Shown here piece by piece: positions 19,519 through 56,730 of a stretch of DNA of 64,000 bases (positions are counted from its first letter, which is position 1; every line of letters begins with the position of its first letter). The notes beneath the pieces are model-generated. The model saw only the letters and a program-made list of their open reading frames with translations, was not told the origin of the DNA and did not search any database. This DNA comes from an uncultured Thiotrichales bacterium (GTDB lineage: Bacteria > Pseudomonadota > Gammaproteobacteria > UBA4575): the NCBI GenBank assembly GCA_964486815.1, contig CAZAOO010000004.1, positions 75,371-139,370 of the forward strand, given 5' to 3'. The translations under genes were made by a program, and so were the position numbers.

Positions 19519-19610
19519 AATTAATAATAAAATGTACTTTACAACTATTTCTATAATAAAACTTATTTCAGTAATATTGTGTCTTTTACCAAAGTGATTT
19601 GTAAATAAAG

Positions 19611-20852: not shown

Positions 20853-20876
20853 TATCTACTTGATAGACATGAAACA

Positions 20877-21164: not shown

Positions 21165-21187
21165 GAAATTTCTCTAGCTATTAAGAT

Positions 21188-24094: not shown

Positions 24095-24100
24095 TTCACT

Positions 24101-26231: not shown

Positions 26232-26285
26232 TAGCATTCATATTTTTCTATTAAGATTAAATTTTATTTATTTATAAAATTAAAC

Positions 26286-28361: not shown

Positions 28362-28441
28362 ATTCTCTTTTTATGAATTCTGGCTCATTGAAGTTTGGAC
28401 AAAAATATAGTCTGAAGCTAGAACATACATCTATCCCAGAT

Positions 28442-30971: not shown

Positions 30972-31197
30972 ATTTAAGCTTGATTCGTGTGAGTAGCAAC
31001 TTAGGCATACATGCTGAAGTCGTTACTCACTTCGAGCAAGAATTTGCTAATAAACGTTAGCTTTTTAGGTCGTTAGTTTGAGCACATAAAAGAATAGTAA
31101 CTACCTGTGTATGCATTATAAAAATAATGTTTATAAAACTAAAAAATGCTAATTGCAGTTATGCCCTAACAGGTAAATTCAAGGAGAAGATTAGTTA

Positions 31198-32100: not shown

Positions 32101-32139
32101 TTATAAGAACCGCACTATAGAATCTGGAGAATTAACAAA

Positions 32140-33974: not shown

Positions 33975-33975
33975 C

Positions 33976-35510: not shown

Positions 35511-35563
35511 ATAACGGATTAGACATAATAAATAAAGAATAATTTAGATCAGGAGAACATGAT

Positions 35564-37963
35564 ATGTGTGCAATGAGATTAACGGGTTACGCTGATAAGT
35601 TTGGCGTCCATCCCGGAGATACAATTAAATTCCATGTGAATTGTGACGGACCCAAAAAATATGATTGCCAAATCGTAAAAATGATTCATGGCGATACTAA
35701 TCCACGTGGCCCTGGGTTTATTGAAAAAAAAGTTTCTGCTAAATGTAACGGTGAATATAAAGGTAGACCACAAACTATCTATAGTGGTTCTTATGGTTAC
35801 ACAGATGACTTCAGCCACTTTCAAGTTGAATCCTTTACTATGCAGTGTTGGATTTGGCCAACAACACCAAAAACGCATCCAAAATATTGGCGTCATGGTG
35901 CGCAAGGTTTAATGACAAAATGGTGTAAGGGCAAAGGTTATGGATTATTTATTAACGAAGATGGTTGTTTGGAATTACGCATAAACAACAAGAAAATTAC
36001 CACAGGTGCCCCCATCCGTGATCATGCCTGGCATTTTGTTGCTGCAACGTTTGATGCTAAAACTGGCAAGGCAACTCTTTATCATGAGCCACAGATTCAG
36101 TATGCCTTGGACCCTGATATCCCACCTGTTACAGAGAAAATTAGCGGTAAAATCCAACACACTGATGGTGTTCCATTTGCAGTAGCAGCGTATGCGGATG
36201 GCGCAAGTTCAAATCCGCAGGCACAAGCTTCACGCCCTGCAGGCATGATCATGACAGGCCATTACAATGGCAAAATCGATAGCCCAAGACTGTGTAGACG
36301 CGCATTAAGTCGACAAGATATTGAAACCATGAAGCTTGGTGCACAGCCCGGCTTAACTGAACGCCGACATAGTGGTCCTACAGGCCCATTGTCTGAAGCT
36401 ATAGTGGGTGCATGGGATTTCTCAGATGGAATAAACACCATGGTAGGCATAGATCACGGTCCATACTTATATGACTTAGAAATTGTAAATTGTCCAACTC
36501 GAGCAATGACCGGATATAACTTCTCGGGTCACAACTTTGATTGGAAACACGCACCTGAAGAATACGGTGCAATTCATTTTCACGATGACGATGTCGATGA
36601 TGCACGCTGGGATGTTGATTTCGAATGGGATGTACCTAAAGGCACTGACAGTAAATTTTATGCTGCAAAACTAACCACAGATTCTGGTGACGAAGAATAC
36701 ATACCGTTTTGGGTGGTTCCACATGTTGGCGAAGAGACCGCTAAAATTGCTTACATGGTGCCAACGATTAGTTATATGGCTTATGCAAACGAACACCTTG
36801 CAAACAATGCAGGTGGTGCAGAATTGTTAGTCTATCGTGTACCGATCATGCAAGACCAAAACATGTTTTTAAGTGAACACCGTGAATATGGTGGTTCTAT
36901 TTATGACACCCATACAGATGGTAGTGGTCTATGTTTGTCATCGCGTTTACGACCAATCTTGAGTATTCGTCCGAAATACGATCACTTTTTAATGCAAGCT
37001 CCATGGCAATACCCTGCTGATCTACACATGATCTATTGGCTGGAAGAAATGGGCTACGAATATGATTGTATTACCGACGAAGATGTTACCTATGATGGTC
37101 TAGCACGACTTGAGAATTACAATGTCGTAATAACGGGTTCTCACCCAGAGCACAACAGTGGTCCACAACTAGATGCTTTACATAACTATACACAACAAGG
37201 TGGACGCTTGATGTATATGGGTGCTGATGCTTGGTATTGGATCCATTCGTATCATCCTGCATACGATAATTTAGGTCGAGGCATTGTTACCGAGATGCGT
37301 CGTTGCGAATCTGGTATTCGCACCTGGCGTGCAGATCCTGGTGAGTATTATCACCAAGGCACTGGTGAACTCGGTGGTATGTGGCGTTATCGCGGTCGCT
37401 ATCTGCACTCCGTTGCCGGTACTGGAATGTCTTCAGAAGGTTTCGATATTTCTTCCTACTACTCACGAACTTATGAAAGTAAAGATCCTCGTATATCTTG
37501 GGCATTTGACGGCATTGCTTATGATGAGAAGATTGGAAACTTTGGTTTAGTCGGTGGTGGTGCCGCAGGAACAGAGCTCGACATTGTCGATACTATGTTA
37601 GGTTCTCCTCCGCACACCTTAGTAGGTGCTACTTCTGCTGGGCGTCACACGGAAGCTTACCTTTTGGTAATGGAAGACTATGGCTTTAGCCAGCAAGGTA
37701 TTGATGGTACACAACATCCACGTGTTCGATCTGATATTGCATTTCATGAAACTCCGAATGGTGGTGGATGTTTTGCATTTAGCTCAATAGCTTTTTGTGG
37801 ATCACTTCCATGGAACAATGGTAAGAACAACATTTCTACATTAGTAGGAAATGTTTTAGATCGTTTCATGAAAGATGGACCATTACCTGCAGCACCTAAG
37901 AGCGCTTACATTCATCGTGGACGTGCAGATCACGATCCAGCAATGAACAAAAAAGCGAAGTAA
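35564..37963 (+). CDS. dmfA2: N,N-dimethylformamidase large (beta) subunit
   Basis: 799 aa. N-terminal strings MRLTGYADKFGVHPGDTIKFHVNCDG...HGDTNPRGPGFIEKKV plus the overall length and domain layout fit the DMFase beta subunit (~760-800 aa). It is a paralogue of the 773-aa ORF at 42395. Confidence 0.7.
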   Translation: MCAMRLTGYADKFGVHPGDTIKFHVNCDGPKKYDCQIVKMIHGDTNPRGPGFIEKKVSAKCNGEYKGRPQTIYSGSYGYTDDFSHFQVESFTMQCWIWPTTPKTHPKYWRHGAQGLMTKWCKGKGYGLFINEDGCLELRINNKKITTGAPIRDHAWHFVAATFDAKTGKATLYHEPQIQYALDPDIPPVTEKISGKIQHTDGVPFAVAAYADGASSNPQAQASRPAGMIMTGHYNGKIDSPRLCRRALSRQDIETMKLGAQPGLTERRHSGPTGPLSEAIVGAWDFSDGINTMVGIDHGPYLYDLEIVNCPTRAMTGYNFSGHNFDWKHAPEEYGAIHFHDDDVDDARWDVDFEWDVPKGTDSKFYAAKLTTDSGDEEYIPFWVVPHVGEETAKIAYMVPTISYMAYANEHLANNAGGAELLVYRVPIMQDQNMFLSEHREYGGSIYDTHTDGSGLCLSSRLRPILSIRPKYDHFLMQAPWQYPADLHMIYWLEEMGYEYDCITDEDVTYDGLARLENYNVVITGSHPEHNSGPQLDALHNYTQQGGRLMYMGADAWYWIHSYHPAYDNLGRGIVTEMRRCESGIRTWRADPGEYYHQGTGELGGMWRYRGRYLHSVAGTGMSSEGFDISSYYSRTYESKDPRISWAFDGIAYDEKIGNFGLVGGGAAGTELDIVDTMLGSPPHTLVGATSAGRHTEAYLLVMEDYGFSQQGIDGTQHPRVRSDIAFHETPNGGGCFAFSSIAFCGSLPWNNGKNNISTLVGNVLDRFMKDGPLPAAPKSAYIHRGRADHDPAMNKKAK

Positions 37964-38076: not shown

Positions 38077-39291
38077 TTGAATTACAATAACGTTGGATGG
38101 TGCAATATGGATTTTCATCCAGATATGGGTTACATAGAGAATGGTGTCGATCTCACCAATAATGATTTATATAAATCGACAAACCTACCCTTCGGACAAG
38201 CTTCGATACTTCCACCCTTTTCGTATCAATCAAAAATTTTTAGTGATCTAGAAGATGAAAAACTCTGGACACGCAATTGGATAGCTGTCGGATTCACTCA
38301 TGAAATACCTAACGCAGGAGATCTTTTACCCTTCACAGTCGGACATCATGGCTTACACGTTCAACGACAAGAAGATGGCAGTTTAATAGGTCGGTTCAAT
38401 AAAGCTCAGCATGGCGGATGTCGTGCAGTACCACTGCAATGCCAAACTGGCAAGAAAACCAAATGCTCCTTTACCTCTTGTGGTTACAGTCGTGACCGAA
38501 ATGTTATTCACGTACAAGAAATTGGGGAAAATACCCCGACCATGCATCAATATATAGGATTAATTCCTGAAAGATTATTGCCTGTAAAAGTAGAAGTTTT
38601 AGGTTCAATTATTTTTATTAACCTAGATAATGAATGCAATAAGCTTGCAGATGAATTCTCGGCAGTAGCCAAGGATATCAAATTATCTTTAAACGAAGAT
38701 TTTATATTACAAAATAATGTGTGGATTGAATGCGCCTCAAATTGGAAATTTTCTGGGCGCGCTTTCTTTGATGGAAATAACATATGCAATAGTATTTCAA
38801 ATCATAGCAATAATAATATTTACAATTTCTTTATTAGTCAAAATGTTTCTACTCAAGAAATAGGTCTAAATATTGATGATGCTAATGAAGATAATATGAA
38901 TTATGTACAACTAAGTTGGTTATTCCCTAACATAGTGCTTATTCAACACACAGATTTTCTTGTAAGCGTAATTTTACAGCCCACAAACATGGGCGAAACT
39001 AATTTACGCACTTCTTTGTTTTTAAAAGACCATTACAGAAATGATGTTGCATCCCACCTGCTAACAAATTTGCGAGAATACATGCAATCCATCACATCAA
39101 GAGCACTACAAATGCAAAGTCAAGCTGATGAGCTAACTGCGCCGGGCGCTCCTGAATTTAAAAGCAACATGATTCCAATTGAAACGAATTTGGCAGGTTA
39201 CTCTTTCAATCGTTACATAATTGGAAAAATTGAAAAAGAGCATCAGTATTACTGGAACGCACCACTATATAGCAACAATATTAGGCGTTAG
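38077..39291 (+). CDS. Hypothetical protein with an N-terminal Rieske/ring-hydroxylating-oxygenase-alpha-like region in which canonical cluster ligands are replaced by a 4-Cys pattern
   Basis: The spacing W..VGFTHEIPNAGDLLPFTVG..GLHVQRQEDGSLIGRFN mimics the Rieske-oxygenase N-terminus. Where CxH / CxxH are expected, the sequence reads QHGGC...C-x7-C-x4-CGY. An Asn-rich low-complexity insert is present. Confidence 0.3.
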   Translation: MNYNNVGWCNMDFHPDMGYIENGVDLTNNDLYKSTNLPFGQASILPPFSYQSKIFSDLEDEKLWTRNWIAVGFTHEIPNAGDLLPFTVGHHGLHVQRQEDGSLIGRFNKAQHGGCRAVPLQCQTGKKTKCSFTSCGYSRDRNVIHVQEIGENTPTMHQYIGLIPERLLPVKVEVLGSIIFINLDNECNKLADEFSAVAKDIKLSLNEDFILQNNVWIECASNWKFSGRAFFDGNNICNSISNHSNNNIYNFFISQNVSTQEIGLNIDDANEDNMNYVQLSWLFPNIVLIQHTDFLVSVILQPTNMGETNLRTSLFLKDHYRNDVASHLLTNLREYMQSITSRALQMQSQADELTAPGAPEFKSNMIPIETNLAGYSFNRYIIGKIEKEHQYYWNAPLYSNNIRR

Positions 39292-42394: not shown

Positions 42395-44716
42395 TTATCT
42401 CCACTGTTTTTCTTCAAGCGTCCAGCTTCCCCCTGGAAGTTCACCATCCTTAATAAAATTATCGACAACATTTTTAAGCAAGCTTGAAGCGCCATTTTTA
42501 TAATCATTTGCAGGCAAAGCTGATCCAAAAGCAATTGAGCCTGTGCTAAACACAGCACCATTATTGGGTGCTGTAAAATAAGTTATATCTGCGCGTACAC
42601 GATAATCTAAGCTACCAACTAAGCCTGCATAGGCATACAAAAGCTCTTCCGTTACTACCACATAGTTATCACTATGCCCTCCCGATGAGGCAATAATTTT
42701 AGTATGCGGCGGCGTACCTAATGAGAGATCGTAGCGATCTAGCTCAATTCCCGCAGCACCACCATAAGCTAAACCTTCATCACCAAAAACCTCATCCTCA
42801 ATTCCTTCTGTGAGCCAAGAAACGGTTCGATGATAGCTATCAGGCATTTTCCTAAAAGGTGCACTAGTTTCAAATCCTTCTGCAATAAAACCTACGCCGG
42901 TAAGTTTTTGCGGTGCACGCCCACGTGTTCTCCACAAACCACTCTTCTCACCTGTGGTTTGCAAATAGTGTTCACCAGCTTTTGCCGCCCAAGCACGCAT
43001 ACCTGAATCTAATTTTCTAACTTCCATACACCAAGGTTCATCCTCATTAAAACCGATACACCAGTAATAACCATTGCCACCCATATATATGAGTCGCCCA
43101 CCTTGAGCTACAAAGTCTTCTTGTGCATCTAACATCCGTTCCGAAACATATTCTGGATGTGTGCCAGTCATTACACAGTTATAAGGTTCTAATGCACTTA
43201 ATTCTTCCTGATGTAAATCTTCATCAGTAATAATGTCATAGTCATAACCACTCGCTTCAAGCCAAGCTATAATGGAAAGATCAGCAGGAAATTGCCACGG
43301 CACATTCATACTTGATATGCGATATTTCGGTCGCATATTTACGATGGGCCTCTTATAGGAACTGAATGACACACCCGCACCATCCTCATAACTGTCGTAC
43401 GTTGACAATCCAAATTCACCATTTTTATAAATTTCAATATCGACATCACTGATTACAGGTGGTTGCCCTGTCATAGGTTGTATTATTTGTGCATCAAAAC
43501 TTAATTTTTCATTTGCATAGGCAAGATAACTAGCAGTAGGAACCAAAAAACATAATTTAGATGTAGGTTTAGCTGGTCTTACAAAAAAGACTACATATTC
43601 TTCACCCAACCCATTACCACTACCTGCAGTTAAACGAAATGCATATACTCCACTTTTTAAATTTTCCGGGACCTGCATAGATTTAGTTACTTCCCAATTA
43701 CAATCTGTAACTGACTCAGGGTGGAACTCAATACCTCCATACTCATACGGTGCCAGCCTGAAACAATCATTTTTCCCTGACCAATTCCAACCTGTTAAAC
43801 CTCGTACAGGATGATTTACACCAACTGCATTAAGTTTATGGGGACCAATATCGACAACCGTGTTACCGATACCATTTTCCGTATAGCCTTCCGTTGTATC
43901 CCAGTACGCTAAGATAGAGTTTTTGGGTGGCAATTCGCCGGAACAAACTTTGTCTAATTCATCACGTGAAAGAGCTCGATTACAAATACCCGGGCGATCA
44001 ATTTTTCCGAAATACATGTCGTTAACAAAATTACCTCTTAATTCATGAAAATCTAATGCTCCTGCAATCATGAAAGGAACATCTTGTCTGTTTTTTTGTT
44101 TGAACCTAAGGGTAGTTTGCATGTGCGAGCTAAAATCATATGGCGTAACCTTTCCAATTAACGAGTTATAGCGATTCATAACTCCCTCTTGAAAAAGAGT
44201 TACTTTACCGCTACTAGGATCAAAACTTGCAGCTACGAAATACCAGACTTTATCTACTAGTGGTAATTCAGAAGCAATATAGTCAATCTCTGCGCCATCA
44301 CCCACCCAAAATTCGAGATGACCTTGCGGATTTATACCGATTCCATAACCCTCATTGGTGCGCGCATCTACTCGCCCTAATAGAGTTTGGCGTAAACCTT
44401 TTTTAGAGATGGTTGGCCAGATATAACAGAATATAGTGAAACTTCCTTCAACACATAGATGCTGATTTGGATCATCAACAACCAAATGCGAGCCTAACTG
44501 AGTGAACTGTTTTTTAACATCCCATTCCCCATTCACTGGACATTCAACTTCTTCTTCAACAAAACCTGGGCCGTCTACATGCTCGTCACCATGTATAAGG
44601 CGTACAAGTTGGGCATCTGCTGTTTTTGTTCCATCTGCATTTACATGAATATCAATATCCTCACCTTGTTTAACAGATATTTTATTCGTATATCCAAATA
44701 TTTTAATTTCAGCCAT
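42395..44716 (-). CDS. DMFase large-subunit paralogue (N,N-dimethylformamidase beta-subunit-like amidohydrolase), substrate unknown
   Basis: 773 aa. Clearly homologous to the ORF at 35564 along its whole length (MAEIKIFGYTNKISVKQGEDIDIHVNADG...LIHGDEHVDGPGFVEEEV vs MRLTGYADKFGVHPGDTIKFHVNCDG...MIHGDTNPRGPGFIEKKV). It is the last gene of an ABC-importer operon. Confidence 0.7.
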   Translation of the reverse strand: MAEIKIFGYTNKISVKQGEDIDIHVNADGTKTADAQLVRLIHGDEHVDGPGFVEEEVECPVNGEWDVKKQFTQLGSHLVVDDPNQHLCVEGSFTIFCYIWPTISKKGLRQTLLGRVDARTNEGYGIGINPQGHLEFWVGDGAEIDYIASELPLVDKVWYFVAASFDPSSGKVTLFQEGVMNRYNSLIGKVTPYDFSSHMQTTLRFKQKNRQDVPFMIAGALDFHELRGNFVNDMYFGKIDRPGICNRALSRDELDKVCSGELPPKNSILAYWDTTEGYTENGIGNTVVDIGPHKLNAVGVNHPVRGLTGWNWSGKNDCFRLAPYEYGGIEFHPESVTDCNWEVTKSMQVPENLKSGVYAFRLTAGSGNGLGEEYVVFFVRPAKPTSKLCFLVPTASYLAYANEKLSFDAQIIQPMTGQPPVISDVDIEIYKNGEFGLSTYDSYEDGAGVSFSSYKRPIVNMRPKYRISSMNVPWQFPADLSIIAWLEASGYDYDIITDEDLHQEELSALEPYNCVMTGTHPEYVSERMLDAQEDFVAQGGRLIYMGGNGYYWCIGFNEDEPWCMEVRKLDSGMRAWAAKAGEHYLQTTGEKSGLWRTRGRAPQKLTGVGFIAEGFETSAPFRKMPDSYHRTVSWLTEGIEDEVFGDEGLAYGGAAGIELDRYDLSLGTPPHTKIIASSGGHSDNYVVVTEELLYAYAGLVGSLDYRVRADITYFTAPNNGAVFSTGSIAFGSALPANDYKNGASSLLKNVVDNFIKDGELPGGSWTLEEKQWR

Positions 44717-44754
44717 TTTTTATTATTCCCAGATTAAATAGTTATCCATTAAAT

Positions 44755-45096
44755 TTAGGATTCCATTAGATCACTAATTCTTTTCAAAAATACCCCGTGG
44801 TAAGCATCTTCAATTGTTTTAAATTCCTTGCCTTCAACAATACGAGGAAGCTCACCTCTCACACCTGAAAGTGCAATGATTTTGAATGAACTAGTTTTAT
44901 TGTCGCGCTTAATCGCATATTTATTTTTTTGTGGTGCACTACAAAAATAATGCAACAATCTCGAAAGAGGTTCACTGTGCTGCCCATGAGAGTTGTTTTC
45001 ATGCTCTTGTATGACATCTTGGCAGACTAAAGTTTTTAGAAATTCGCTTTGTTTTTTATCGAAATATTCACGATAAAAAATATCTTTATCCTTCAC
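44755..45096 (-). CDS. DMFase small-subunit-like protein (free-standing)
   Basis: 113 aa with an apparent GTG start. ~60% identical to the C-terminal 115 aa of the permease encoded immediately upstream. Homologous to DmfA1 at 35061. Confidence 0.55.
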   Translation of the reverse strand: MKDKDIFYREYFDKKQSEFLKTLVCQDVIQEHENNSHGQHSEPLSRLLHYFCSAPQKNKYAIKRDNKTSSFKIIALSGVRGELPRIVEGKEFKTIEDAYHGVFLKRISDLMES

Positions 45097-45148
45097 TTCA
45101 ATTTCTTCTTCAATGGATATGGATTAATATTATTATTAATTATTCTTA

Positions 45149-46798
45149 CTATGATTCCAGCAAATCGTATACACGTCTTACAAAAACACCATGGTAAGCA
45201 TCTTCGATAGTTTTGTATTCTTTATCTTCGACTAATCGTGGAGACATTCCTCTTACCCCCGAGAACGCTACAATCTTAAATGTATTTGAAATTCCATCGC
45301 GTTTAATTGCATATTTATCATTTTGAGGAACACGACGAAAATAAAGTAATATTCTTTCTAGTGCTTCACTATGTTGTCCTAGAGGTTTACTTTTATGTTC
45401 ATTTATTACTTCATCACACACTAGATTTTTTAAATAATCTCTTTGCATCTTGTCGAAACGCCGATGGTATATATGATCTTTATCGCAGATCTCCGTCGCC
45501 TCTTCTGGTAAGACATCACCACCTTTTTCAGCGCGAGCCGACCGCCACTCCCCTTTCTTTTTATCACGCCAAGCACGAAATTGTTGTTTCATGCCAAATA
45601 GACCTTTGTTTAAAAATAACACAACGAACAGCATTAATAGTCCTATCATAACGTGTCTTACAGGCCCTAAAGTAATCAAAACTTTATCCAATATAACTAC
45701 AATCAGTGTGCCAATAATTGCACCTTCTGCTTTCCCGATACCACCAATGGTAAGCATAGCCAAGCCAAGCAAAAGAGTATCAAAACTAAATATTGAAAAA
45801 GCTACTCCTCTGTAATGTGCAGCATAAAAACCACCAATGAATCCAAGCGCTACTGAAGAAACAAGAAATACGGTTATTCTTGCCTGCTTATAATTCACAC
45901 CAGTAGCTTCAGCAAACGCTTCTCTTTTCTCGGGTGCCATTTTTAACAGTCGACCAAGACGTTTACCATCTACAAATCTAAACAAAAAAAGTGCAGCAAT
46001 TAATAATGCAAAAGCTCCATAGTATGAGACCAGTGATTGCATTAATGGTGGCCAATCAGAATTTATGTACGTTGAGGCACCATATAAACCTCCTGAAGCA
46101 GAACCAAATTCTTTTGAGGTAACCATATAAACTCTACAAAGCTCATTTAAACCTAAAGTCAACAATGCATAGTAAAATCCATCTAAACGCATTGCCGGTA
46201 ATGCAATGATCCCACCAAAAATAAATCCGATAGCCATTCCAATTAAGGGTAATGACCACCACGGATAGCCTAAATTTATCGATAACCAAGAAGTACAAAA
46301 TGCTGCCACACCAACTACTGCATAGGTGGCAAGTGAAAAAATACTCGCCGTACCAATCACTAATGTCCAACATACATTTATCGCAGCAAATATTCCAAAC
46401 ACCGCTCCTGCCGTAAGAAGTGTGTTCTGCATACTTTCAGGAAAGAAAAGAGGTGCTAAAGCTAATGCTGTTAAACCTATTACCCAATAAATAGGGCGTT
46501 TATCCACAATTAGTTTTTGAGCTTTAAGAGACTTTATATTGTAATAGCCTCGTACATGTAACAAGGTTCTTCTAGTTGGCCACCACCTCAATCTTTTCCA
46601 AAGACGTTCCCCATGATTTTTCCATTTATATATATATTTAAACCGACCTACTTTATAGAGAGGCACGTTATAAGTTTTATTTTTATCCCAAATTGATCCA
46701 GGATCCTCTACTTTTATTGAAGGAACTTCATAATTTCCACCTTTATCTCCCCAAACCGATAGTGGATTCTTCCAGGTATACTTTTTAGTATTGCTCAT
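45149..46798 (-). CDS. ABC permease (LivM/UrtC-type) fused to a C-terminal DMFase small-subunit-like domain
   Basis: 549 aa. Residues ~100-410 form a LivM-family polytopic permease. Residues ~430-549 (…HIYHRRFDKMQRDYLKNLVCDEVINEHKSKPLGQHSEALERILLYF…KIVAFSGVRGMSPRLVEDKEYKTIEDAYHGVFVRRVYDLLES) repeat the sequence of the next gene. The start overlaps the upstream permease stop (ATGA). Confidence 0.7.
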   Translation of the reverse strand: MSNTKKYTWKNPLSVWGDKGGNYEVPSIKVEDPGSIWDKNKTYNVPLYKVGRFKYIYKWKNHGERLWKRLRWWPTRRTLLHVRGYYNIKSLKAQKLIVDKRPIYWVIGLTALALAPLFFPESMQNTLLTAGAVFGIFAAINVCWTLVIGTASIFSLATYAVVGVAAFCTSWLSINLGYPWWSLPLIGMAIGFIFGGIIALPAMRLDGFYYALLTLGLNELCRVYMVTSKEFGSASGGLYGASTYINSDWPPLMQSLVSYYGAFALLIAALFLFRFVDGKRLGRLLKMAPEKREAFAEATGVNYKQARITVFLVSSVALGFIGGFYAAHYRGVAFSIFSFDTLLLGLAMLTIGGIGKAEGAIIGTLIVVILDKVLITLGPVRHVMIGLLMLFVVLFLNKGLFGMKQQFRAWRDKKKGEWRSARAEKGGDVLPEEATEICDKDHIYHRRFDKMQRDYLKNLVCDEVINEHKSKPLGQHSEALERILLYFRRVPQNDKYAIKRDGISNTFKIVAFSGVRGMSPRLVEDKEYKTIEDAYHGVFVRRVYDLLES

Positions 46799-47676
46799 TG
46801 CTCACGCGCCTTATCCAAAAGACCCGCAATACCTCTTGGTCTGATAATTAATATTGTAATAATCACAAGAAACTGTGTGATCAACACATATTGCCCACCT
46901 AATAACCTCGATGTAAGCGCTTCAGTCAGACCAAGAATGATGGCAGCAATTACAGCACCTTGAACACTTCCGAGACCACCGCATAACGCTATGCTCACAC
47001 CTTTGATTAATGGAGTTAAACCGCTAAAGGGTGATATATAATAAGTCTGAGACAGAAGCACAGCCGAAAGACCCGCCATACCTCCAGTAATTGCCATTAC
47101 ATAAAAGCCTGTTTTCCTTATCCCAATACCAACAATAGATGCGGCATGAGGGTTCATCATCATGGCTCGTATTTCTAAACCGCGTCTACTGGACTTCATC
47201 CATAGCACAACAAATATCAACATCAATATGGAACAGACTATTATTCCAATTTTATCAGAGGTTAAAACGGTGTTACCTATAGAGACTTTCCAATAACCAA
47301 ATACTTCAGGCAGTGCTTTATTTTTTGGACCAAAATACCAAAGCAAACCCTGTGAGCCAATTAAGCTAATCGCCAGTGTTCCAATCATGCCCCTAATGGT
47401 AAAATTTGGCTTGTCATGTAGCGGTATAAAAACCAACATACAAATGATAATCCCTCCAAGTGCTCCAATTAATATTCCAGCAGCAATCACTACGACTGGA
47501 TGATCAGAAATCATTCGCGCTGCTAAGTAAGCACCATATCCTGCAAATGAAAAAATAAATCCATAACTTAGATTCAGCAACCCCAAACTTGACCAAGTAA
47601 TAGAGACCGCTACGGCTATAAGGCCATAAATACAAGCTACTATAGTTGCATTAATTAATATGAAACTTATATCCAA
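46795..47676 (-). CDS. ABC permease (LivH/UrtB-type)
   Basis: 293 aa polytopic LivH-family permease. Confidence 0.85.
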   Translation of the reverse strand: MDISFILINATIVACIYGLIAVAVSITWSSLGLLNLSYGFIFSFAGYGAYLAARMISDHPVVVIAAGILIGALGGIIICMLVFIPLHDKPNFTIRGMIGTLAISLIGSQGLLWYFGPKNKALPEVFGYWKVSIGNTVLTSDKIGIIVCSILMLIFVVLWMKSSRRGLEIRAMMMNPHAASIVGIGIRKTGFYVMAITGGMAGLSAVLLSQTYYISPFSGLTPLIKGVSIALCGGLGSVQGAVIAAIILGLTEALTSRLLGGQYVLITQFLVIITILIIRPRGIAGLLDKAREQ

Positions 47677-47706
47677 ATCAAACCCACCTTAAATACTATT
47701 TACGGA

Positions 47707-48414
47707 CTACTTTAATTGCATTGACAAAGCAGAAGTTGCTTCACCTTTTAATTTTCCAGCATGCATTCCAATAACACGATCTACATTGCCTTCTAATAGA
47801 GCAACGTTTTGTTCAGCGATAATCATTGCTGAATTACTTAATTCTATTTTCAATAGCGCTTCCATTACACCCTTGCCAATTTTTGGTGCCAATCCCAACG
47901 ATGGTTCATCTGCAAGATAAAGTTTTGCATCCATCATCAACCCTCTTCCTATAGAAACCATTCTTCGTTCACCACCAGACAATCTTGCAACAGGTGTTTT
48001 TAATAATTTTTTTAATGGTTCAAACAAATCTAAAACTTGTTCTTTTCTTTGTTTTCGATTTTTCCAAGCTTGTTTTGTGAAAGCACCACTGTCTAGATGC
48101 TCTTCAACTGTTAGACCATGAAATATTTCATCTCCTTGGGGCATAATAGCGAGTCCTTGCCTAACAATATGATGCGTATAACGCCCCGGCCCTTGACTTC
48201 GCGTTCTACCAATTTGATTTCCATTAAATAAAATTGAGCCACGTTGCCAACCGGTTAGTCCCGCAATACCATAAAACAGTGTGGTTTTCCCATGGCCATT
48301 TAAACCCACCAATCCAACGCGTTCTCCAGAGCTAACTATTAAATCTAAGTCATGTATTACACGCAATGGGCCATAGCCTGTTGACAATCCCTGAACATTT
48401 AGTATTTCACTCAT
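47707..48414 (-). CDS. ABC transporter ATP-binding protein (LivF/UrtE-type)
   Basis: Walker A GLNGHGKTT, signature LSGGERRMVSIG, Walker B LYLADEPSLG. Confidence 0.85.
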   Translation of the reverse strand: MSEILNVQGLSTGYGPLRVIHDLDLIVSSGERVGLVGLNGHGKTTLFYGIAGLTGWQRGSILFNGNQIGRTRSQGPGRYTHHIVRQGLAIMPQGDEIFHGLTVEEHLDSGAFTKQAWKNRKQRKEQVLDLFEPLKKLLKTPVARLSGGERRMVSIGRGLMMDAKLYLADEPSLGLAPKIGKGVMEALLKIELSNSAMIIAEQNVALLEGNVDRVIGMHAGKLKGEATSALSMQLK

Positions 48415-49142
48415 TAGGCAGTCTCAAAATATGCAGCTTGTACTTTTGGACTGTTAATTATCTCTTTGAGCGAACCCTGTGCGATTACTTCGCCTGCATC
48501 CATGACAACTACTCTGTCAGCAATGGTTTCCAGGAGTTCAATTCTATGTTCTACAATTATTACTGCGATATTCATTTCTTTAGAAAGCATTCTTAGAATC
48601 TCGTCTATCTCATCTATTTCAGAATTGATTAATCCAGCAGCAGGTTCATCCATTAACAACAATTCTGGCTTATGCATGAGAAGATTAGCCAGCAATAGTT
48701 TGCGTCGGTTGAACGTTTTAAGTTGAGTATTAAACACATGTTCGTCCACAACAAAATCAACTAGATCCGCTGCGTATTCCGCATCGAAACGTGTGAGATA
48801 AGGCTTATAAGCTTGCCTTACCGCTTTGAATGTTTCGCCTACAGTAAGGTCTTCGGGAACCACTGGAGTTTGAAATGTTCGACCAATCCCAATTCGCGCA
48901 CGTTGATGAAAGTTCATGCCAGTAATGTTTTTTTGTTTATAAGAAACATTACCAGTTTTTGGCGTGTATCGACCTGAAAGAATTTCAAGCAAGCTAGTTT
49001 TACCTGCACCATTTGGACCAATGATGCCTAATACTTCTCCGGGTTTAATTTCTAAATTAATGTCTCGTAATATCTCTCTACCACCCAAATCGAGGGACAA
49101 GTTCTTGCACGAAAACAAAGGGGCAAAAGTTTGATCATCCAT
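48414..49142 (-). CDS. ABC transporter ATP-binding protein (LivG/UrtD-type)
   Basis: Walker A GPNGAGKTS, Walker B LLLMDEPAAGL. The stop overlaps the next gene's start. Confidence 0.85.
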   Translation of the reverse strand: MDDQTFAPLFSCKNLSLDLGGREILRDINLEIKPGEVLGIIGPNGAGKTSLLEILSGRYTPKTGNVSYKQKNITGMNFHQRARIGIGRTFQTPVVPEDLTVGETFKAVRQAYKPYLTRFDAEYAADLVDFVVDEHVFNTQLKTFNRRKLLLANLLMHKPELLLMDEPAAGLINSEIDEIDEILRMLSKEMNIAVIIVEHRIELLETIADRVVVMDAGEVIAQGSLKEIINSPKVQAAYFETA

Positions 49143-49168
49143 GAAATTCGCCCCACTATTCTTTTACG

Positions 49169-50515
49169 TTACCCCCACCAAGGAGCTGGCTGAAGTTTGG
49201 ATTCTGCTATTGCATTTGGCCAAACAATTTTGTGCTGCACGTCTTGTACTTGCACAAAAAGTTGACCCATACCAGTTTCATGCGAATCTGATTGATTTCC
49301 GAAACCATTGTCTGGATAGTGAAGAGCTTCTTGATATTCATTATCCATGTCCATCATTCCGCACACACCTCTATCTGGATTCGCTCTTACCCAAGCACAA
49401 TTCTTCTTGAAGTCTTCTGGTGTAGTATCCAATGCCTTAGTAGCATTCCACGCTTTCTCAAGATACTTAACGATGTCATAACCATTACCTGTATACACAA
49501 GACCCATGGTATTTCTTTCGTCATCACCAAACTCAGGAAAGCGTTTCAAATATTTTTTCCTAAAATCTTTTCCTTTTTTATCGCCATAAATCCCTAATAC
49601 GGTGCTCCAACAAAAACCTTCTGTTGCACGACCTCCAAGCTCTAAGAACTCAGGCTGTGACGGACCATACTGCAGATAAACGAGTGAATCTTTAACAGGA
49701 TCTGAACTAAATTGTTTACAAAATGCCGCATACTCAGAGGCTACCCAGTGATCAATCATAATTGCACCAGCATCCACTTCTTTAAGTCTTTGCATGACTG
49801 GCGACCAATCATTTACTGGGTATTGAATGTCTGTAACTTCTGCCAATTCAAAATCATATTTTGGAATGGCTTCTTTAGCGGCTTTAAGAATCGTTTGGCA
49901 ATAACCTACTTGTTCAGCAACAATGTGTATTTTTCTATTCTTAGGCTTCCATCCTTGCTCTTTTTCCATTTGTTGAAGCCAAAGCGGATAGGTCCAACCG
50001 TAATTCACTTCAGATGGGTCGGTTTGCAGCACATGGCTGTATTTTTCTGGCTCTGCTTTATATGCCTCAGTTGCATTTCGTTGTGTGTTGCCCTGTAAAT
50101 ATGGACATTTATATTTTGCAGATTCATCCATAGCAGGTATAGGCGCAAACAAAAATGAATTAGAGATCGCATGTACTTTTTTATCTATACATGCGGCAAT
50201 CGCTTGCCTACAACTTTCAGGATTAAGCTTGTCAACATCCGGAACAAATAACTCTAACTCTCTTCCTAATATTCCACCTGCTGCATTAATTTCTTCTTGA
50301 GCTAGAATGGAACCGTTAAGGTGATCTTGATCATCAGCAACACCATAGGGTGTTGACAAGGATGACGGGATACCTAATAAGATTTTATCTGATGCATCTA
50401 CTCGCCTCACCCATGGCGCAGGAAATGCAGAGACCACTGCACCTGCTGCAACTCCTTTTAATATTTTTCGTCTTGTTTGTTGACTTTTATTCAGCTTCTT
50501 CTCTTTTTTTCTCAT
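49169..50515 (-). CDS. Tat-exported periplasmic substrate-binding protein of the Liv/Urt/amide family (divergent from UrtA)
   Basis: 448 aa with twin-arginine motif TRRKILKGVAAGAVV and a type-I PBP fold. It is the first gene of the operon, with a GGAGG RBS. Confidence 0.8.
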   Translation of the reverse strand: MRKKEKKLNKSQQTRRKILKGVAAGAVVSAFPAPWVRRVDASDKILLGIPSSLSTPYGVADDQDHLNGSILAQEEINAAGGILGRELELFVPDVDKLNPESCRQAIAACIDKKVHAISNSFLFAPIPAMDESAKYKCPYLQGNTQRNATEAYKAEPEKYSHVLQTDPSEVNYGWTYPLWLQQMEKEQGWKPKNRKIHIVAEQVGYCQTILKAAKEAIPKYDFELAEVTDIQYPVNDWSPVMQRLKEVDAGAIMIDHWVASEYAAFCKQFSSDPVKDSLVYLQYGPSQPEFLELGGRATEGFCWSTVLGIYGDKKGKDFRKKYLKRFPEFGDDERNTMGLVYTGNGYDIVKYLEKAWNATKALDTTPEDFKKNCAWVRANPDRGVCGMMDMDNEYQEALHYPDNGFGNQSDSHETGMGQLFVQVQDVQHKIVWPNAIAESKLQPAPWWG

Positions 50516-50991: not shown

Positions 50992-51441
50992 ATGATAGAA
51001 ATAAACCAAGTGCTTGGTCATTCACATGATTCGAATCTAGCGAATCAACTTCATGACTTATCACACCATAACAAAGTCGAATATATTGTTTTGGATCATG
51101 CAAATTTACAACGCCGTCGTTTTCGCACACAAACAGATCAAGGCACAGACTGCGCTGTGACAATAGCTCGTGATAATAAATTATCTAATGGTGCAGTTTT
51201 ATTATTAGAAAAAGATCGCGCCATTGTGGTGAAAATGGCTGAGGATCAGTGGCTTTCGCTCCACCCTAAAGATATTTCATGTGCGATTGAACTTGGCTAC
51301 TTTGCTGGCAATATGCATTGGCGAGTTAAGTTTGAGAATGAACGTCTTGATATTGCACTTGAAAGCCCTAAAGAAACTTATCTTGATCGATTACAGATAT
51401 TTTTTAACCAAAATAAAATAACTCTCGTTAAGCATGACTAA
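50992..51441 (+). CDS. ureE: Urease accessory protein UreE (no His-rich tail)
   Basis: 149 aa with the GNMHW motif (GNxH of the UreE metal-binding domain). Layout as in K. aerogenes UreE. Confidence 0.75.
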   Translation: MIEINQVLGHSHDSNLANQLHDLSHHNKVEYIVLDHANLQRRRFRTQTDQGTDCAVTIARDNKLSNGAVLLLEKDRAIVVKMAEDQWLSLHPKDISCAIELGYFAGNMHWRVKFENERLDIALESPKETYLDRLQIFFNQNKITLVKHD

Positions 51442-52114
51442 AGAAGAACAAATACTTACTCTTTTACAACATGGAGATAGCTTTTTTCCTTCTGGAGCAG
51501 TATCGTTTTCTTGGGGCTTGGAAATGTTAAATAACGACCAAGTCATCACTTCAATTAATGAGCTCAATATATTTATTGAAAATCAATTGCTTGAGAGATG
51601 GGCCCCGTTTGAACGTGTTGTCTTGGCTCATTCTTATGATCATGCTGATGATATCGAACATGTAATTTCCATTGATAGACTTGTTGAATGTATGACCTTA
51701 GCAAGTGAACTAAGAGATGGTTCAAAAAGATTAGGGTCTGCACTTTTAACTATATATCAACAACTAAATAACCCAATAGCAGACCGTTACCTCAAGCTAA
51801 GTTATGAAGGAAAAGCATTAGGTCACTTGCCGATTACCCAGGCTCTGGTGTGGAACTCGCTTGGTTTATCACGTAATTCAGTATTAATGTTATCTGCATA
51901 TAACTTTTGTGTTTCAGTGCTTGGAGCGGCATTACGGCTTGGCATTGTCGGTCATATAAACTGTCAAAAAAGTTTAACTGCATTTAGCCAACTAATTAGT
52001 GAAATTTTAACTTGGCCCATTCCCGCAATAGAAGATATTCATGCCTTCACTCCTTTTGCCGACATTGCATCGATGCGTCATGAAAATTCAGAGATTAGGC
52101 TATTTGCAAACTAA
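51434..52114 (+). CDS. ureF: Urease accessory protein UreF
   Basis: 226 aa, helical. The motif LLQHGDSFFPSGAVSFSWGLE matches the UreF N-terminus (FPxG..s.S.GLE). Confidence 0.8.
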   Translation: MTKEEQILTLLQHGDSFFPSGAVSFSWGLEMLNNDQVITSINELNIFIENQLLERWAPFERVVLAHSYDHADDIEHVISIDRLVECMTLASELRDGSKRLGSALLTIYQQLNNPIADRYLKLSYEGKALGHLPITQALVWNSLGLSRNSVLMLSAYNFCVSVLGAALRLGIVGHINCQKSLTAFSQLISEILTWPIPAIEDIHAFTPFADIASMRHENSEIRLFAN

Positions 52115-52145
52115 AAATAATTACTCAAAGATTCGGAGATAAACC

Positions 52146-52841
52146 ATGCTACTAACACCCACTGAATATGAGCGTTTAACTATTTACACTGCGGCCGAAC
52201 TTGCAAGAAAAAGAAGAGAGAAAGGCTTGAAATTAAATCATCCAGAAGCAACAGCTATTATTGCTGACGAAATTTGTGAAGGAGCAAGAGAAGGTCGAAG
52301 TGTTGCAGAAATGATTAGCTTTGGTTCAACAATATTAAGCACCGACGATGTTATGCCTGGTGTTGGAGATATGATGCACATGCTTCAAGTTGAGGCTACC
52401 TTTCCTGATGGCACCAAATTAGTCACCGTACATGAACCGATACGATCAGGTAAAAAGAAAACTAAAGGAAATATCGTACCAGGGGAAATTATACCGGGTG
52501 ATGGTGATATCAAAATTAATGCAGGAAAACGCTCAAACAAACTAAAAGTACTTAATACAGGTGACCGCCCTGTACAAATTGGTAGCCATTTTCACTTTTT
52601 TGAAGTTAATCCAGGATTAGATTTTAAACGTAGTGACGCATTTGGAAAACACCTGGATATACCCGCCGGCACCGCAGTGCGTTTCGAGCCAGGTGAAAGC
52701 AAAGAAGTACAACTGGTTAATTTTGGTGGCGCTAGAGAAATACATGGCTTAAACAGTTTAACGAATGGTTCAACTACCAATGATGTTAAAAAACAAGAAG
52801 CCTTGCTCGAAGCTAAAAATCGTGGATTTAAGGGGGCATAA
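52146..52841 (+). CDS. ureAB: Urease gamma-beta fused subunit (Helicobacter-type UreA)
   Basis: Residues 1-100 are urease gamma ([11 protein letters not shown]...LKLNHPEA...[19 protein letters not shown]). Residues ~107-231 are urease beta ([17 protein letters not shown]...). Confidence 0.9.
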
Positions 52842-52845
52842 GAAA

Positions 52846-54558
52846 ATGATTAAAATTTCGAGAAAAGAATATGCAACTATGTATGGCCCTACCAAAGGAG
52901 ATGCAGTGCGTCTTGGAGACACCTCATTGTTGGCAGAAGTTGAACAAGACTGTGCCGTTCCGGGTGATGAATGTTTGCATGGTGGCGGTAAAACTTTACG
53001 CGATGGATTGGGACTAACTCCGGGCTATGACAGTGCAGCAGGTTCCTTAGACATGTTGGTTAGTAACGCACTGATAATTGATCCCGTATTAGGCATTGTC
53101 AAAGCCGATATAGGAATTAAAGAAGGTAATATAGCAGGCGTCGGCAAAGCTGGAAATCCTGCGACTATGGATAATGTAGACCCTGATCTTGTTTGCGGTG
53201 CTGCAACTACGGTACGAGATGCAGAGGGACTTATTGCAACACCAGGTGGAATAGACGTGCATGTGCATTTTGATAGTGCGCAGTTATGTGATCACGCAAT
53301 TGGTTCAGGCATTACCACCATGCTTGGTGGATCGTTGGGCCCAATCACCGTTGGCATAGACTGTGGCGGAGCATGGAATGTTGGCAAGATGTTACAAGCT
53401 TCTGAGCAATGGCCAATAAATTTTGGATTTTTAGGCCGTGGTAATTCTTCTAAACCTAGATCTCTGGTCGATCAACTTGCAGGTGGCTGTTTAGGATTAA
53501 AAATTCACGAAGATTGGGGTGCTATGCCAGCTGTAATTGACACCTGTCTTTCTGTTGCTGACGATTTAGATTTTCAAGTACAACTTCATACCGATACACT
53601 CAACGAAAGTGGCTTTGTTGAAAATACATTAGCTGCCATAAATGGCCGCACAATTCATATGTATCACACCGAAGGTGCAGGTGGAGGACACGCACCTGAC
53701 ATTATTCGAGTTGCGGGTGAATATAATTGCCTACCCTCTTCCACTAATCCAACCAATCCATACACAATCAATACATTTGATGAACACTTAGACATGACCA
53801 TGGTATGTCATCATTTGAATCCTGCTATCCCAGAAGATGTAGCCTTTGCAGAAAGTCGTATTCGTGCACAAACCATCGCAGCGGAAGATGTAATGCATGA
53901 TCTTGGTGCGATTTCTATGTTGGGCTCTGATAGTCAAGGAATGGGACGTATCAATGAAGTCATTTGCCGGACTTGGCAATTAGCAAGCAAGATGAAAGAT
54001 CAACGCGGTCGACTTGAAGAAGAACAAACGAAGCTTGGAGATAATGAAAGAATAAAACGTTATATAGCGAAATACACCATCAACGCCGCACGTACATTTG
54101 GTATTGATCAATATATAGGCTCATTAGAAAAAGGAAAAATGGCAGATATAGTGTTATGGAAACCCGCATTTTTTGGAATAAAACCAGAATTAATTATAAA
54201 AGGTGGTTTTATAGTTTGGTCCGCAATGGGTGACAGTGCTGCGTCACTCATGACTTGCGAACCCCTAGCGATGCGACCTCAGTGGGGAGCGTTCGGAAAT
54301 GCTAAACAACAGTTGAGTGCTAATTTTGTAAACCAGTCAGCAGTTGATGCCAATATTGGCGAAAAGTTACAACTACAAAAAACCTGCCTTGCTGCGCAAG
54401 GTACACGAAAACTTAATAAAGGCCATATGCTACACAACGATAATTGCCCAAAAGTGACGGTTAATCCTAATACATTCGATGTATTTGTCGACGGTGAACT
54501 GGCCACTTGTGAACCCGCTGAGACACTACCATTAACCCAACGATACATGCTTCGATGA
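52846..54558 (+). CDS. ureC: Urease alpha subunit
   Basis: Ni-site motifs [49 protein letters not shown]. The ATG at 52846 ([10 protein letters not shown]) is preferred over the longer overlapping ORF at 52765. Confidence 0.92.
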
Positions 54559-55181
54559 ACAAAAAAGCTTCTCAAAATGGCCCCGCGCGAGTCGGCATAG
54601 GTGGACCTGTAGGCTCAGGTAAAACAGCGCTGATCGAACAACTAATTCCTATCTTTATTACTCGTGGAAATGAAATTGCAATTGTAACTAATGATTTAGT
54701 TACACGTGAAGATGCTAAGCGACTACAACAATCTGGTTTACTTGCCCCAGAGCGAGTGGTTGCAGTAGAGGCAGGTGCTTGTCCGCACACCGTCATACGA
54801 GAAGATCCTACACTAAATATACAGGCTGTAAATCGATTAGACCAACAATTTGAAAACTTAGATATCATTTTGATTGAAAGCGGTGGCGACAACCTTGCTT
54901 CTACTTTTTCTTTGGATCTTGTGGATTATTGGATGTTTGTAATTGACACTTCAGAAGGAGATGACATCCCGCGTAAACGTGGGCCTGGTATTGTACAATC
55001 TGACCTATTAGTAATCAATAAAATTGATATCGCTAAATACGTAGGTGCAGATGTTGATTTAATGGTGAGAGAAGGACAAGAAGTTAGAGGTAACAAACCT
55101 CTAGTGCTCACTAACTGTAAAACAGGACAAGGAATTGAGGATGTGGCTAACCACATTATCAACAACGTGCTCTTTAAATAG
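54555..55181 (+). CDS. ureG: Urease accessory GTPase UreG
   Basis: P-loop [16 protein letters not shown] and NKIDIA motifs. Confidence 0.92.
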
Positions 55182-55193
55182 TATAGAAAATAA

Positions 55194-56003
55194 ATGACAA
55201 ATTTATCACTAGAATTTGCAAGAAATTGCGATGGGAAAACATTCCTTGAATACCAATATGCATCATACCCATTTCATATTTGTAGAACTCAATACCTTGA
55301 GAATGATCCACCTGGAATGGCTAATATCTATATTCAGTCTGCGTCTGGCGGAATATATGAAAATGAAATCCTAACTACGAATGTTATTGCTAGTACGGGT
55401 TCATACAGTCACGTAACTACACAAGCCTCAACCATCGTACATGGCATGACGGATGGCAGTGCATATCAAACAGTAAATATTAATGCTATAGATAACTCAT
55501 ATACAGAATATGTATCTGACCCATTAATTCTTTTCCCTCAGTCAAAATTAAGCACAACTATAAATATATTTGCAGATCAAACCAGTACGGCTGTGATTGC
55601 AGATGCATTTTTACTACACTTTTTAAATGGTGAAAATCGAGTCTTTAAGCAATTAAAAAGCTATTTGCAAATTCACGATGAAAATAATCAATTACTGGCT
55701 AAAGATGTCTACATAATTAATCCAGTGAACTTTTTATCTACAGGACGAAAATATATAGGCATGGGTACTATTTCAATTATAAATCGTTCAATCAACACTG
55801 AAGGCATGTTAGAACGATTACAAGAAGCGATTAAAGCTAATAAAAACGTTTATGGAGGCGCTACCTTATTACCAAATAACTGTGGAATCATAATTAAATT
55901 CTTAGCCCCTGATGGAGATTTTCTAAAAAAGACGATTACTCAACTATGGATGGATATTAGAGAATTATTAGTAGGCACAAAACCAAACATACGAAAGAAA
56001 TAA
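55194..56003 (+). CDS. ureD: Urease accessory protein UreD (UreH in Helicobacter nomenclature)
   Basis: 269 aa. Assigned by position after ureG and by its beta-helix-like composition. Confidence 0.7.
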   Translation: MTNLSLEFARNCDGKTFLEYQYASYPFHICRTQYLENDPPGMANIYIQSASGGIYENEILTTNVIASTGSYSHVTTQASTIVHGMTDGSAYQTVNINAIDNSYTEYVSDPLILFPQSKLSTTINIFADQTSTAVIADAFLLHFLNGENRVFKQLKSYLQIHDENNQLLAKDVYIINPVNFLSTGRKYIGMGTISIINRSINTEGMLERLQEAIKANKNVYGGATLLPNNCGIIIKFLAPDGDFLKKTITQLWMDIRELLVGTKPNIRKK

Positions 56004-56014
56004 TAATATTTAAC

Positions 56015-56671: not shown

Positions 56672-56730
56672 TAAAATACTGCAATAAAATAATCTGCAAC
56701 ATTATCTATACATCTAGATTTAAATTATTA

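Follow-up and report, generated by a model that had tools for sequence, protein, structure and literature searches.

A dimethylformamidase small-subunit domain at the C-terminus of an ABC importer permease: architecture, distribution and possible role

Introduction

The window analysed here, a stretch of 64,000 nucleotides (nt) from an uncultured Thiotrichales bacterium (assembly GCA_964486815.1, contig CAZAOO010000004.1, positions 75,371 to 139,370 of the forward strand), carries a minus-strand operon in which an ATP-binding cassette (ABC) importer is encoded together with homologues of both subunits of N,N-dimethylformamidase (DMFase). The central feature of this operon is that its LivM-type permease ends in a complete domain homologous to the small (α) subunit of DMFase, and the same fusion is present in all of the 80 best-matching loci analysed in other genomes. 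The permease and the α domain each come from an established family; the novelty lies in their covalent union and in what this implies. The explanation that we favour, by a slight balance of probability, is that of an importer which carries its own amidase by way of the permease tail and whose substrate is an N-methylated formamide. No earlier case is known to us in which a primary active ABC importer and a subunit of the enzyme that consumes its substrate form one covalent unit. In full-text searches of the literature, neither the fusion nor a natural substrate nor marine N-methylformamide was the subject of any paper; an earlier note written from this sequence had likewise known of no description of a transporter-tethered heteromeric amidase.

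Architecture of the operon and its importer

The seven open reading frames (ORFs) of the operon run from 50515 to 42395 on the minus strand, and ORF listing and Pfam matches reproduce the anatomy that the earlier note had outlined. The first gene (49169-50515) encodes a substrate-binding protein (SBP) of 448 aa with a Peripla_BP_6 domain (E 1.6e-21); its start, QTRRKILKGVAAGAVV, reads on inspection as a twin-arginine signal (motif T-R-R-K-I-L-K within QTRRKILKG...VDA/SD), as expected of the Tat-exported protein that had been proposed. The closest solved relative of the SBP is 3h5l_A (130 bits), a structural-genomics entry described as the binding protein of a 'putative BCAA ABC transporter' (BCAA, branched-chain amino acid). 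Two ATPase genes follow, the first UrtD/LivG-like (48414-49142, 242 aa, ABC_tran and BCA_ABC_TP_C) and the second UrtE/LivF-like (47707-48414, 235 aa, ABC_tran with E 4.7e-27), and after them come a LivH/UrtB-type permease (46795-47676, 293 aa, BPD_transp_2 with E 1.5e-28) and the LivM/UrtC-type fused permease (45149-46798, 549 aa), whose start is overlapped by the LivH-type stop by 4 nt. The operon closes with a free α subunit of 113 aa that begins with GTG (44755-45096; matches to 6lvb_B and PF26354) and with the large (β) catalytic subunit of 773 aa (42395-44716; DMFA2_C and Laminin_G_3). Gene spacing ranges from the 4-nt overlap to a 52-nt gap; a promoter and terminator scan found no terminator on the operon strand and none internal to the operon, and promoter-like sites were fewer than in shuffled sequence.

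With two BPD_transp_2 permeases, two ATPases and a type-I binding protein in one operon, the system has the composition of the hydrophobic amino acid uptake transporter (HAAT) type (TC 3.A.1.4) and shares the five-component layout of the Liv (LivJHMGF) and Urt (UrtABCDE) importers, whose models are also the best family matches of its proteins. Nevertheless, all five importer proteins score far under the NCBIfam equivalog cut-offs: the SBP falls below those of both LivJ and UrtA (17.5 against 493 bits for the latter), and the remaining four reach 167 against 304 (UrtD), 134 against 286 (UrtE), 103 against 250 (UrtB) and, for the fused permease, 44 against 296 (UrtC). Unlike the Liv and Urt systems, moreover, the LivM-type permease of the window has an N-terminal extension of about 100 aa and a C-terminal addition of about 150 aa made up of a linker and the α domain. 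The FmdDEF short-chain amide and urea system of Methylophilus is a further importer of the Liv/Urt type with which it can be compared.

A third difference from the Liv and Urt importers lies in the ATPases. The second one is canonical in its Walker A, LSGGE and Walker B motifs, whereas the first has LKTFN in place of LSGGQ, so that the pair departs from the ABC dimer in which both ATPases bear an LSGGQ-type signature. The signature of this LivG-type ATPase is degenerate, in the form L[KED][TA][FLM][END], in 72 of 72 homologues from related loci, and the UrtD and UrtE proteins encoded elsewhere in the window are canonical in theirs. With a canonical partner beside it, this ATPase leaves the whole family with one non-consensus ATP site out of two. 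A conserved degenerate ATP site is unusual in an importer.

The permease and its C-terminal domain

The fused permease can be divided into four parts. Residues 1-101 (46496-46798) form a hydrophilic, Trp-rich and very basic extension (24 Lys plus Arg) that is predicted from hydropathy and a charge tally to be cytoplasmic. It has no Pfam match and is modelled with low confidence by AlphaFold2 (AF2), while W9, P12, W16, W37, W67, R69, R71, W73, P74, T75, R76 and R77, among others, are invariant in 40 homologues; it may be a second cytoplasmic docking element. Residues 102-402 (45593-46495) constitute the LivM/UrtC-type transmembrane domain (BPD_transp_2 at residues 133-393, E 8.6e-21), with about ten helices according to the AF2 model and hydropathy; the hydropathy scan itself gave overlapping segments and was used for the charge tally only. 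Residues 403-429 (45512-45592), KQQFRAWRDKKKGEWRSARAEKGGD, are a basic linker, with W410, R411, K413, K414, E417, R419, R422, E424, G426 and G427 invariant in the same 40 homologues, and residues 430-549 (45152-45511) are the DMFase small-subunit domain (DMF_alpha, PF26354). The charge pattern follows the positive-inside rule, the linker being strongly basic. This pattern, together with the basic N-terminus, the approximately ten helices and the absence of a signal peptide from the 773-aa β subunit, should place both the tail and the enzyme on the cytoplasmic side.

The homology of the tail is seen both in its sequence and in its fold. Residues 439-549 of the permease align without gaps to the free 113-aa protein at 60% identity (67 of 111 positions, E 9e-48), just as the earlier note had estimated, and both match the small subunit of Paracoccus DMFase, 6lvb_B, with E values of 4.5e-10 for the free protein and 4.5e-8 for the tail (chain residues 17-127). 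The AF2 model of the tail (predicted local distance difference test score, pLDDT, 86) shows four helices, of which the terminal ones are long, and two strands, the fold described for the Paracoccus subunit (PMC7686228), and a Foldseek search of this model against the PDB returned DMFase small-subunit chains only (template modelling score 0.74-0.77, probability 1.0). The Pfam copy used for the local Pfam and NCBIfam scans was without the PF26354 model, and these scans left the small proteins unmatched; α homology was therefore established through the PDB, through precomputed Pfam tags and through a self-built α-subunit profile, the precomputed PF26354 tags being found on a fused protein identical to that of the window (P0117) and on an identical call of the free gene in L086 and L087. 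Free ORF and tail alike thus correspond to a DmfA1-like subunit of some 110-130 aa. Nineteen columns are conserved across fused and free α sequences, 12 of them identical in Paracoccus DmfA1, and fused domains have extra invariant positions, including LPEEATE at the domain start.

The striking conservation of the linker might reflect a processing site. The permease would then be a delivery device whose tail is cleaved off and released as a soluble α subunit, and it fits such a scheme that the free α proteins of relatives begin with MLPEDTIE..., resembling the LPEEATE of the fused domain. However, the linker is predicted to be a helix (residues 400-426, at low AF2 confidence) that prolongs the last membrane helix without a break, and the cassette lacks a conserved protease gene. 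Making a 13-kDa subunit one by one as part of a membrane protein would, moreover, be expensive for the cell. We also know of no precedent for a permease tail cleaved to deliver a soluble subunit, and regard this scheme as very improbable. Under the favoured explanation, of an importer carrying its amidase, it may be speculated from the model that the 27-residue linker helix, about 40 Å long and thus about as high as an ABC ATPase dimer, would act as a stalk that carries the α domain beyond the ATPases.

Distribution and origin of the fusion

A fusion seen in a single metagenomic contig invites the suspicion of an assembly, frameshift or gene-calling artefact, or of a functionless recent local duplication, and the earlier note had itself named an artefactual duplication or junction as an outcome that would undo its claim. 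Some database entries do present the tail as a separate 'protein' of 147-202 aa. These entries, however, come from short contigs or from error-ridden long-read ones in which all operon genes are fragmented, and the DNA of the window speaks in the same sense: tail and free gene are 65.8% identical in nucleotides, third codon positions agree in no more than 43% of cases, and the longest stretch of unbroken identity does not exceed 14 nt. This identifies them as old paralogues and not as an assembler-made duplication. Judged by their sequences, the two copies are old paralogues under purifying selection. Furthermore, two separately assembled runs (SRR3310977 and SRR3310984) contain a 549-aa protein identical to that of the window, with the same genes for the 113-aa and 773-aa proteins behind it, and four contigs with the identical protein are listed in the index. 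Together with the survey of other genomes described below, these data exclude an artefact, and the suspicion is refuted with next to no residual doubt.

A scan of GTDB with one genome per species yielded 237 relatives, of which the best 80 loci, matching across membrane tail, linker and α domain, were analysed with our own ORF calling and phmmer labels. In 80 of 80, a single continuous ORF comprises the LivM-type transmembrane part and the α domain and is followed by the large subunit, and wherever the contig is long enough the cassette order is binding protein, ATPase, ATPase, LivH, LivM::α and large subunit. The fusion, for which the earlier note had called for a survey, is thus not peculiar to one genome and represents a large conserved family already present in databases. 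The closest loci are L004 and L006, the latter from a Thiotrichales metagenome-assembled genome (MAG), at 90-93% over the queried tail. Other carriers include gammaproteobacterial MAGs, Roseovarius sp. 217, Rhodobacter, Zavarzinia, Dongia, Hyphomicrobium, Methylopila, Bradyrhizobium, Rhodopseudomonas, Verminephrobacter, Rubrivivax and many Pelagibacterales single-cell genomes. Two labels are at odds with this range, L004 being assigned to Mycobacterium and L037 to Oceanobacillus despite cassettes of proteobacterial type; mis-binning or contamination is probably the reason.

At the protein level, a search with the full-length permease recovered 702 clusters at E<=1e-30. The best 120 of these all combine PF02653 with PF26354 and measure 478-556 aa, 119 of them 547-556 aa and one being partial, and one fused sequence of SAR11 type is listed in 136 blocks of the protein collection. 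A search with the tail alone had returned only matches of 73-208 aa, as though other genomes lacked the fusion; this reading was rejected, the matches being fragments from short or frameshifted long-read contigs, and it was the full-length query that brought back the fused family. In the long-read contigs L001-L003, every cassette gene is broken by frameshifts, which generates the spurious 'proteins' of 147-202 aa.

Sequence comparison also speaks to the age of the fusion. A free α gene separates the fused permease from the large subunit in 47 loci, window included. In these loci mean identity is 75% among the fused α domains and 46% among the free α proteins, the fused domain being the more conserved in each of the 1081 locus pairs (1081/1081). 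In a neighbour-joining tree all 81 of 81 fused domains form a single clade, from which it follows that the fusion arose once and that the two copies in the window are not recent duplicates of each other.

The annotation of these proteins is misleading in both directions. Among the best 120 of the 702 clusters, the named entries are called 'branched-chain amino acid ABC transporter permease', as are the RefSeq entries on Aminobacter and Agrobacterium plasmids; at least these 120 clusters hold a fused permease. Conversely, several free, soluble α proteins are misnamed 'inner-membrane translocator' (RefSeq) or 'branched-chain amino acid transport system permease protein' (Joint Genome Institute), for instance L092:7779-8321 on Halalkalicoccus jeotgali plasmid 2, P0028, P0041, P0067 and others; these wrong names have apparently been transferred from fused permeases. 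An archaeal permease fusion in Halalkalicoccus was considered on the strength of such a name and rejected, since this 'inner-membrane translocator' has no hydrophobic segment and is a soluble α subunit.

The large subunit and loci without a free α subunit

The 773-aa protein has the organisation of the β family, with a lectin-like Laminin_G_3 domain ahead of DMFA2_C (PF20254; E 7.5e-92, 309 bits against a cut-off of 27) in a chain of about 770 aa, and its alignment with 6lvb_A, the large subunit from Paracoccus (598 bits), covers the full length, as a large-subunit homologue's should. Paracoccus DMFase binds its iron through Y399, Y440 and E521 and depends on H519, N547 and E657 (Arya et al., PMC7686228). 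All six have counterparts in the β subunit of the window (Y400, Y440, E522, H520, N548 and E658), so that the two-Tyr, one-Glu site that the earlier note had wished to see checked is complete; in the same alignment, the pocket residue F693 is replaced by Tyr. All six catalytic residues are kept in 76 of 81 aligned large subunits, and this set (YYHENE) is present in the window β and in every β that stands first after a fused permease. The transporter-linked β subunits form one clade, apart from DmfA2 and from the other large subunit of the window, within which the type with a free α gene is nested in the type without one; this topology is provisional, as it comes from a distance tree with one outgroup.

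Where a second large subunit follows a fused permease, catalytic residues have been lost, with the first one keeping the full set: Y440C plus E657G or E657A in the Bradyrhizobium loci L051, L065 and L071, and E521A plus E657A on Aminobacter pMDW2 (L084). Such a second subunit may be a non-catalytic partner.

In 30 of the 80 loci, a profile search of six-frame ORFs over 525 kb found no α-like ORF besides the fused domain, even at E<=1. These loci include SAR11, Bradyrhizobium, Rhodopseudomonas and Hyphomicrobium; their β gene starts 1-88 nt past the permease stop, and in 11 loci of Pelagibacterales or Pelagibacteraceae (SAR11) only 1-5 nt past it, a distance that perhaps allows co-translational assembly. 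The fused α is likewise the only one on 21 Agrobacterium plasmids (pAt) and on plasmids of Rhizobium and Aminobacter. In three Bradyrhizobium loci the order is fused permease, β, α, β, which gives one α per β only if the permease tail is counted. When the large subunit of Paracoccus is produced in the absence of α, it has no activity and its stability is reduced (Arya et al., PMC7686228). Therefore, where an intact β is accompanied by the tail as its only α, the tail is most simply taken to be the α subunit of that β. A natural fusion of the two subunits also exists: in P0355, of 891 aa, residues 34-123 are an α domain and residues 149-887 a large subunit that shares 33% identity with the window β, which makes this protein an independent 'Rosetta stone' for the α-β partnership.

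The same distribution bears on a different role for the tail, namely that of a regulatory module which would bind the large subunit or a product merely so as to gate the transporter by trans-inhibition or to report the availability of the enzyme, hydrolysis being left to a soluble α2β2 enzyme assembled with free α. ABC importers controlled by a C-terminal domain are familiar, MalK, MetN and ModC being examples, and the conserved degenerate ATP site suggests an unusual control of the ATPase cycle; a free α gene is, moreover, kept beside β in 50 of the 80 loci, the window included. On the other hand, the known regulatory domains reside on the ATPase and not on the permease, the tail retains the signature of the α family, and the 30 loci and the Agrobacterium plasmids maintain a catalytically intact β, which by analogy with Paracoccus requires an α to be active, although no free α is at hand. 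A purely regulatory tail therefore seems to us unlikely, though by no means negligible.

A possible transport-coupled amidase

Returning to the favoured explanation of a permease that carries its own amidase, the sequence of events would be as follows. The operon would encode a Liv/Urt (HAAT) type importer of a small neutral amide, most likely an N-methylated formamide such as N-methylformamide or N,N-dimethylformamide (DMF). The stalk-like basic linker and the complete α domain that end the LivM-type permease would lie in the cytoplasm, where the tail α would bind the iron-dependent 773-aa β subunit as the free α does in Paracoccus DMFase, so that active amidase would be held at the inner face of the transporter. 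The active-site entrance of DMFase sits at the α/β interface (PMC7686228), and a tethered α could thus bring this entrance beside the point where the solute leaves the transporter. Hydrolysis to charged products, formate and methylammonium or dimethylammonium, could then overtake the back-diffusion of a membrane-permeant amide, and the released amine would enter the N-methylglutamate pathway, whose genes lie at 15175-24811. The free α of the window might occupy the second α site of a β2 dimer or belong to a soluble pool of the enzyme.

In this scheme we infer the α-β contact at the membrane, the channelling and the substrate. The idea of the earlier note that the large subunit docks on the transporter has been strengthened by the universal fusion, by the 30 loci without a free α and by the conservation of the fused domain, all of which are compatible with the contact rather than a direct view of it. 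As to the substrate, an N-methylated formamide that would yield methylamine and formate is a guess, prompted by the adjoining methylamine genes and by the substrate range of the Paracoccus enzyme, which hydrolyses DMF, N-methylformamide, N-ethylformamide and formamide and neither acetamide nor urea (PMC7686228).

Several points weigh against this explanation. DMFase is an α2β2 enzyme and a transporter contains one LivM, a mismatch in stoichiometry; in the 50 loci that keep a free α, the tail is not the sole possible partner of β, and the absence of a free α from the other 30 covers about 20 kb per locus and plasmids, not whole genomes. The AF2 model of the full-length permease (pLDDT 59.9) is of such low quality that it gives no position of the tail with respect to the membrane domain or the ATPases. 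With respect to the substrate, the SBP has no characterised close relative among its matches, and the transporter-linked β subunits share no more than about 40% identity with DmfA2 of Paracoccus, from which they stand apart as a clade of their own. In addition, N-acetyl-(R)-β-phenylalanine acylase (PDB 8huy) is a full-length homologue of the large subunit (354 bits), much more distant than DMFase and with only a large chain listed in its PDB entry, which shows that the large-subunit fold accepts non-formamides and calls for caution.

A bolder version goes further and remains tentative, being plausible without, in our estimate, being probable. According to it, these systems would constitute a widespread class of importers with an obligatory amidase subunit built into the permease, the enzyme would be assembled on the transporter and receive its substrate directly from the translocation path at the entrance that α and β form together, the tail would be the sole α in SAR11, Bradyrhizobium, Rhodopseudomonas and Agrobacterium, and the substrate would be a natural methylated formamide of seawater and soil.

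Comparison with known systems and implications

Coupling of uptake to an enzyme is known from group translocation by the phosphotransferase system (PTS), from fusions of SulP transporters with carbonic anhydrase and from vectorial acylation by FadL and FadD. With such transport metabolons the present system would share the logic of converting the solute at the inner face, trapping the product and maintaining the gradient, if the inferred coupling holds. Unlike them, it is built on a primary active ABC importer, and the fused part is the non-catalytic small subunit of a metalloamidase.

The closest enzymes, DmfA1/DmfA2 of Paracoccus (PDB 6lvb) and of Methylobacterium sp. DM1, consist of homologous α and β subunits and share Laminin_G_3 and DMFA2_C with the proteins of the window; the Paracoccus enzyme also shares the iron ligands, the catalytic residues and the α fold of four helices and two strands. 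Paracoccus DMFase, however, is soluble and has a free α, whereas one α of the window is the C-terminus of an ABC permease, and the DMF locus on P. aminophilus pAMI2 consists of dmfR-dmfA1-dmfA2 with no transporter. DMFase has been said to have 'undescribed folds of unknown evolutionary origin' (PMC7686228). Two marine papers touch on DmfA briefly: DmfA proteins of Alpha- and Gammaproteobacteria have been detected in Pacific metaproteomes (PMC9477243), and DmfA appears as a gene in SAR11 gene clusters (PMC10308929). The domain pair is visible in databases through Pfam DMF_alpha but appears to have been left uninterpreted.

Should the favoured explanation prove true, the cassette would be a hard-wired transport metabolon, and it would solve the problem of accumulating a small, uncharged and membrane-permeant solute. 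DMFase has so far been regarded as serving the breakdown of a man-made solvent, yet its close relatives in SAR11, roseobacters, rhizobia and purple bacteria come with a dedicated high-affinity importer and with neighbours for methylamine oxidation. This combination suggests that a natural substrate exists and that methylated nitrogen and one-carbon compounds follow a marine route not yet recognised, and a natural methylated formamide would in turn explain the origin of a 'xenobiotic' DMF-degrading enzyme. The design is common in marine and soil bacteria, SAR11 included, and the cassette is present in tractable strains such as Agrobacterium tumefaciens 186 (pAt), Roseovarius sp. 217, Rhodopseudomonas and Bradyrhizobium.

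Genomic neighbourhood and a second DMFase-like pair

The window region is an island for small nitrogen compounds. It comprises an AmiE-type amidase with AmiR and AmiC (9437-12583), a urea channel (12727-13575), the genes of N-methylglutamate synthase, mgsABC (15175-18125), a GmaS-type ligase (18211-19518; TIGR03105, 676 bits), N-methylglutamate dehydrogenase, mgd (19611-24811), a UrtA-like sensor with a hybrid histidine kinase and a LuxR-type regulator (24936-29140), an Urt-type transporter (29637-34671, plus strand) and, on the other side of the fused cassette, a urease cluster (50992-57405). The N-methylglutamate pathway is therefore complete in the window (mgsABC, gmaS and mgd), at a distance of 18 kb from the fused cassette; in about 17 of 83 loci, SAR11 included, mgsABC and/or gmaS adjoin the cassette, and in SAR11 these genes come directly after the large subunit. 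Genes homologous to those of the kinase and the LuxR-type regulator border the fused cassette in 30 of the 83 related loci.

Directly downstream of the Urt-type transporter, on the plus strand, lies a second DMFase-like pair with a small protein of 149 aa (35061-35510) and a large one (35564-37963). The transporter genes at 31198-34671 pass all four UrtBCDE cut-offs of NCBIfam, whereas the binding protein that goes with them is under the UrtA cut-off. The earlier note had called this pair canonical and that of the fused cassette divergent, labels that have to be reversed: the large subunit of the second pair reaches 509 bits against 6lvb_A, compared with 598 bits for the β of the fused cassette, and carries N547D, and its small protein has no PDB match and matches the α profile over its C-terminal half only (36 bits). 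Similarity to the DmfA1 family, which the note had expected of all three small-subunit sequences, accordingly stands for the free ORF at 44755 and for the permease tail, and extends to the protein at 35061 only for that half and only by profile. The pair at 35061-37963 is a putative second, non-fused amidase linked to a transporter. It is followed by a 404-aa protein (38077-39291, plus strand) with only weak matches, to a model of the glycine-betaine monooxygenase GbcA (48 bits) and to Ring_hydroxyl_A (E 0.005); a methylated amine might be the substrate of this protein, perhaps a divergent oxygenase of the Rieske type.

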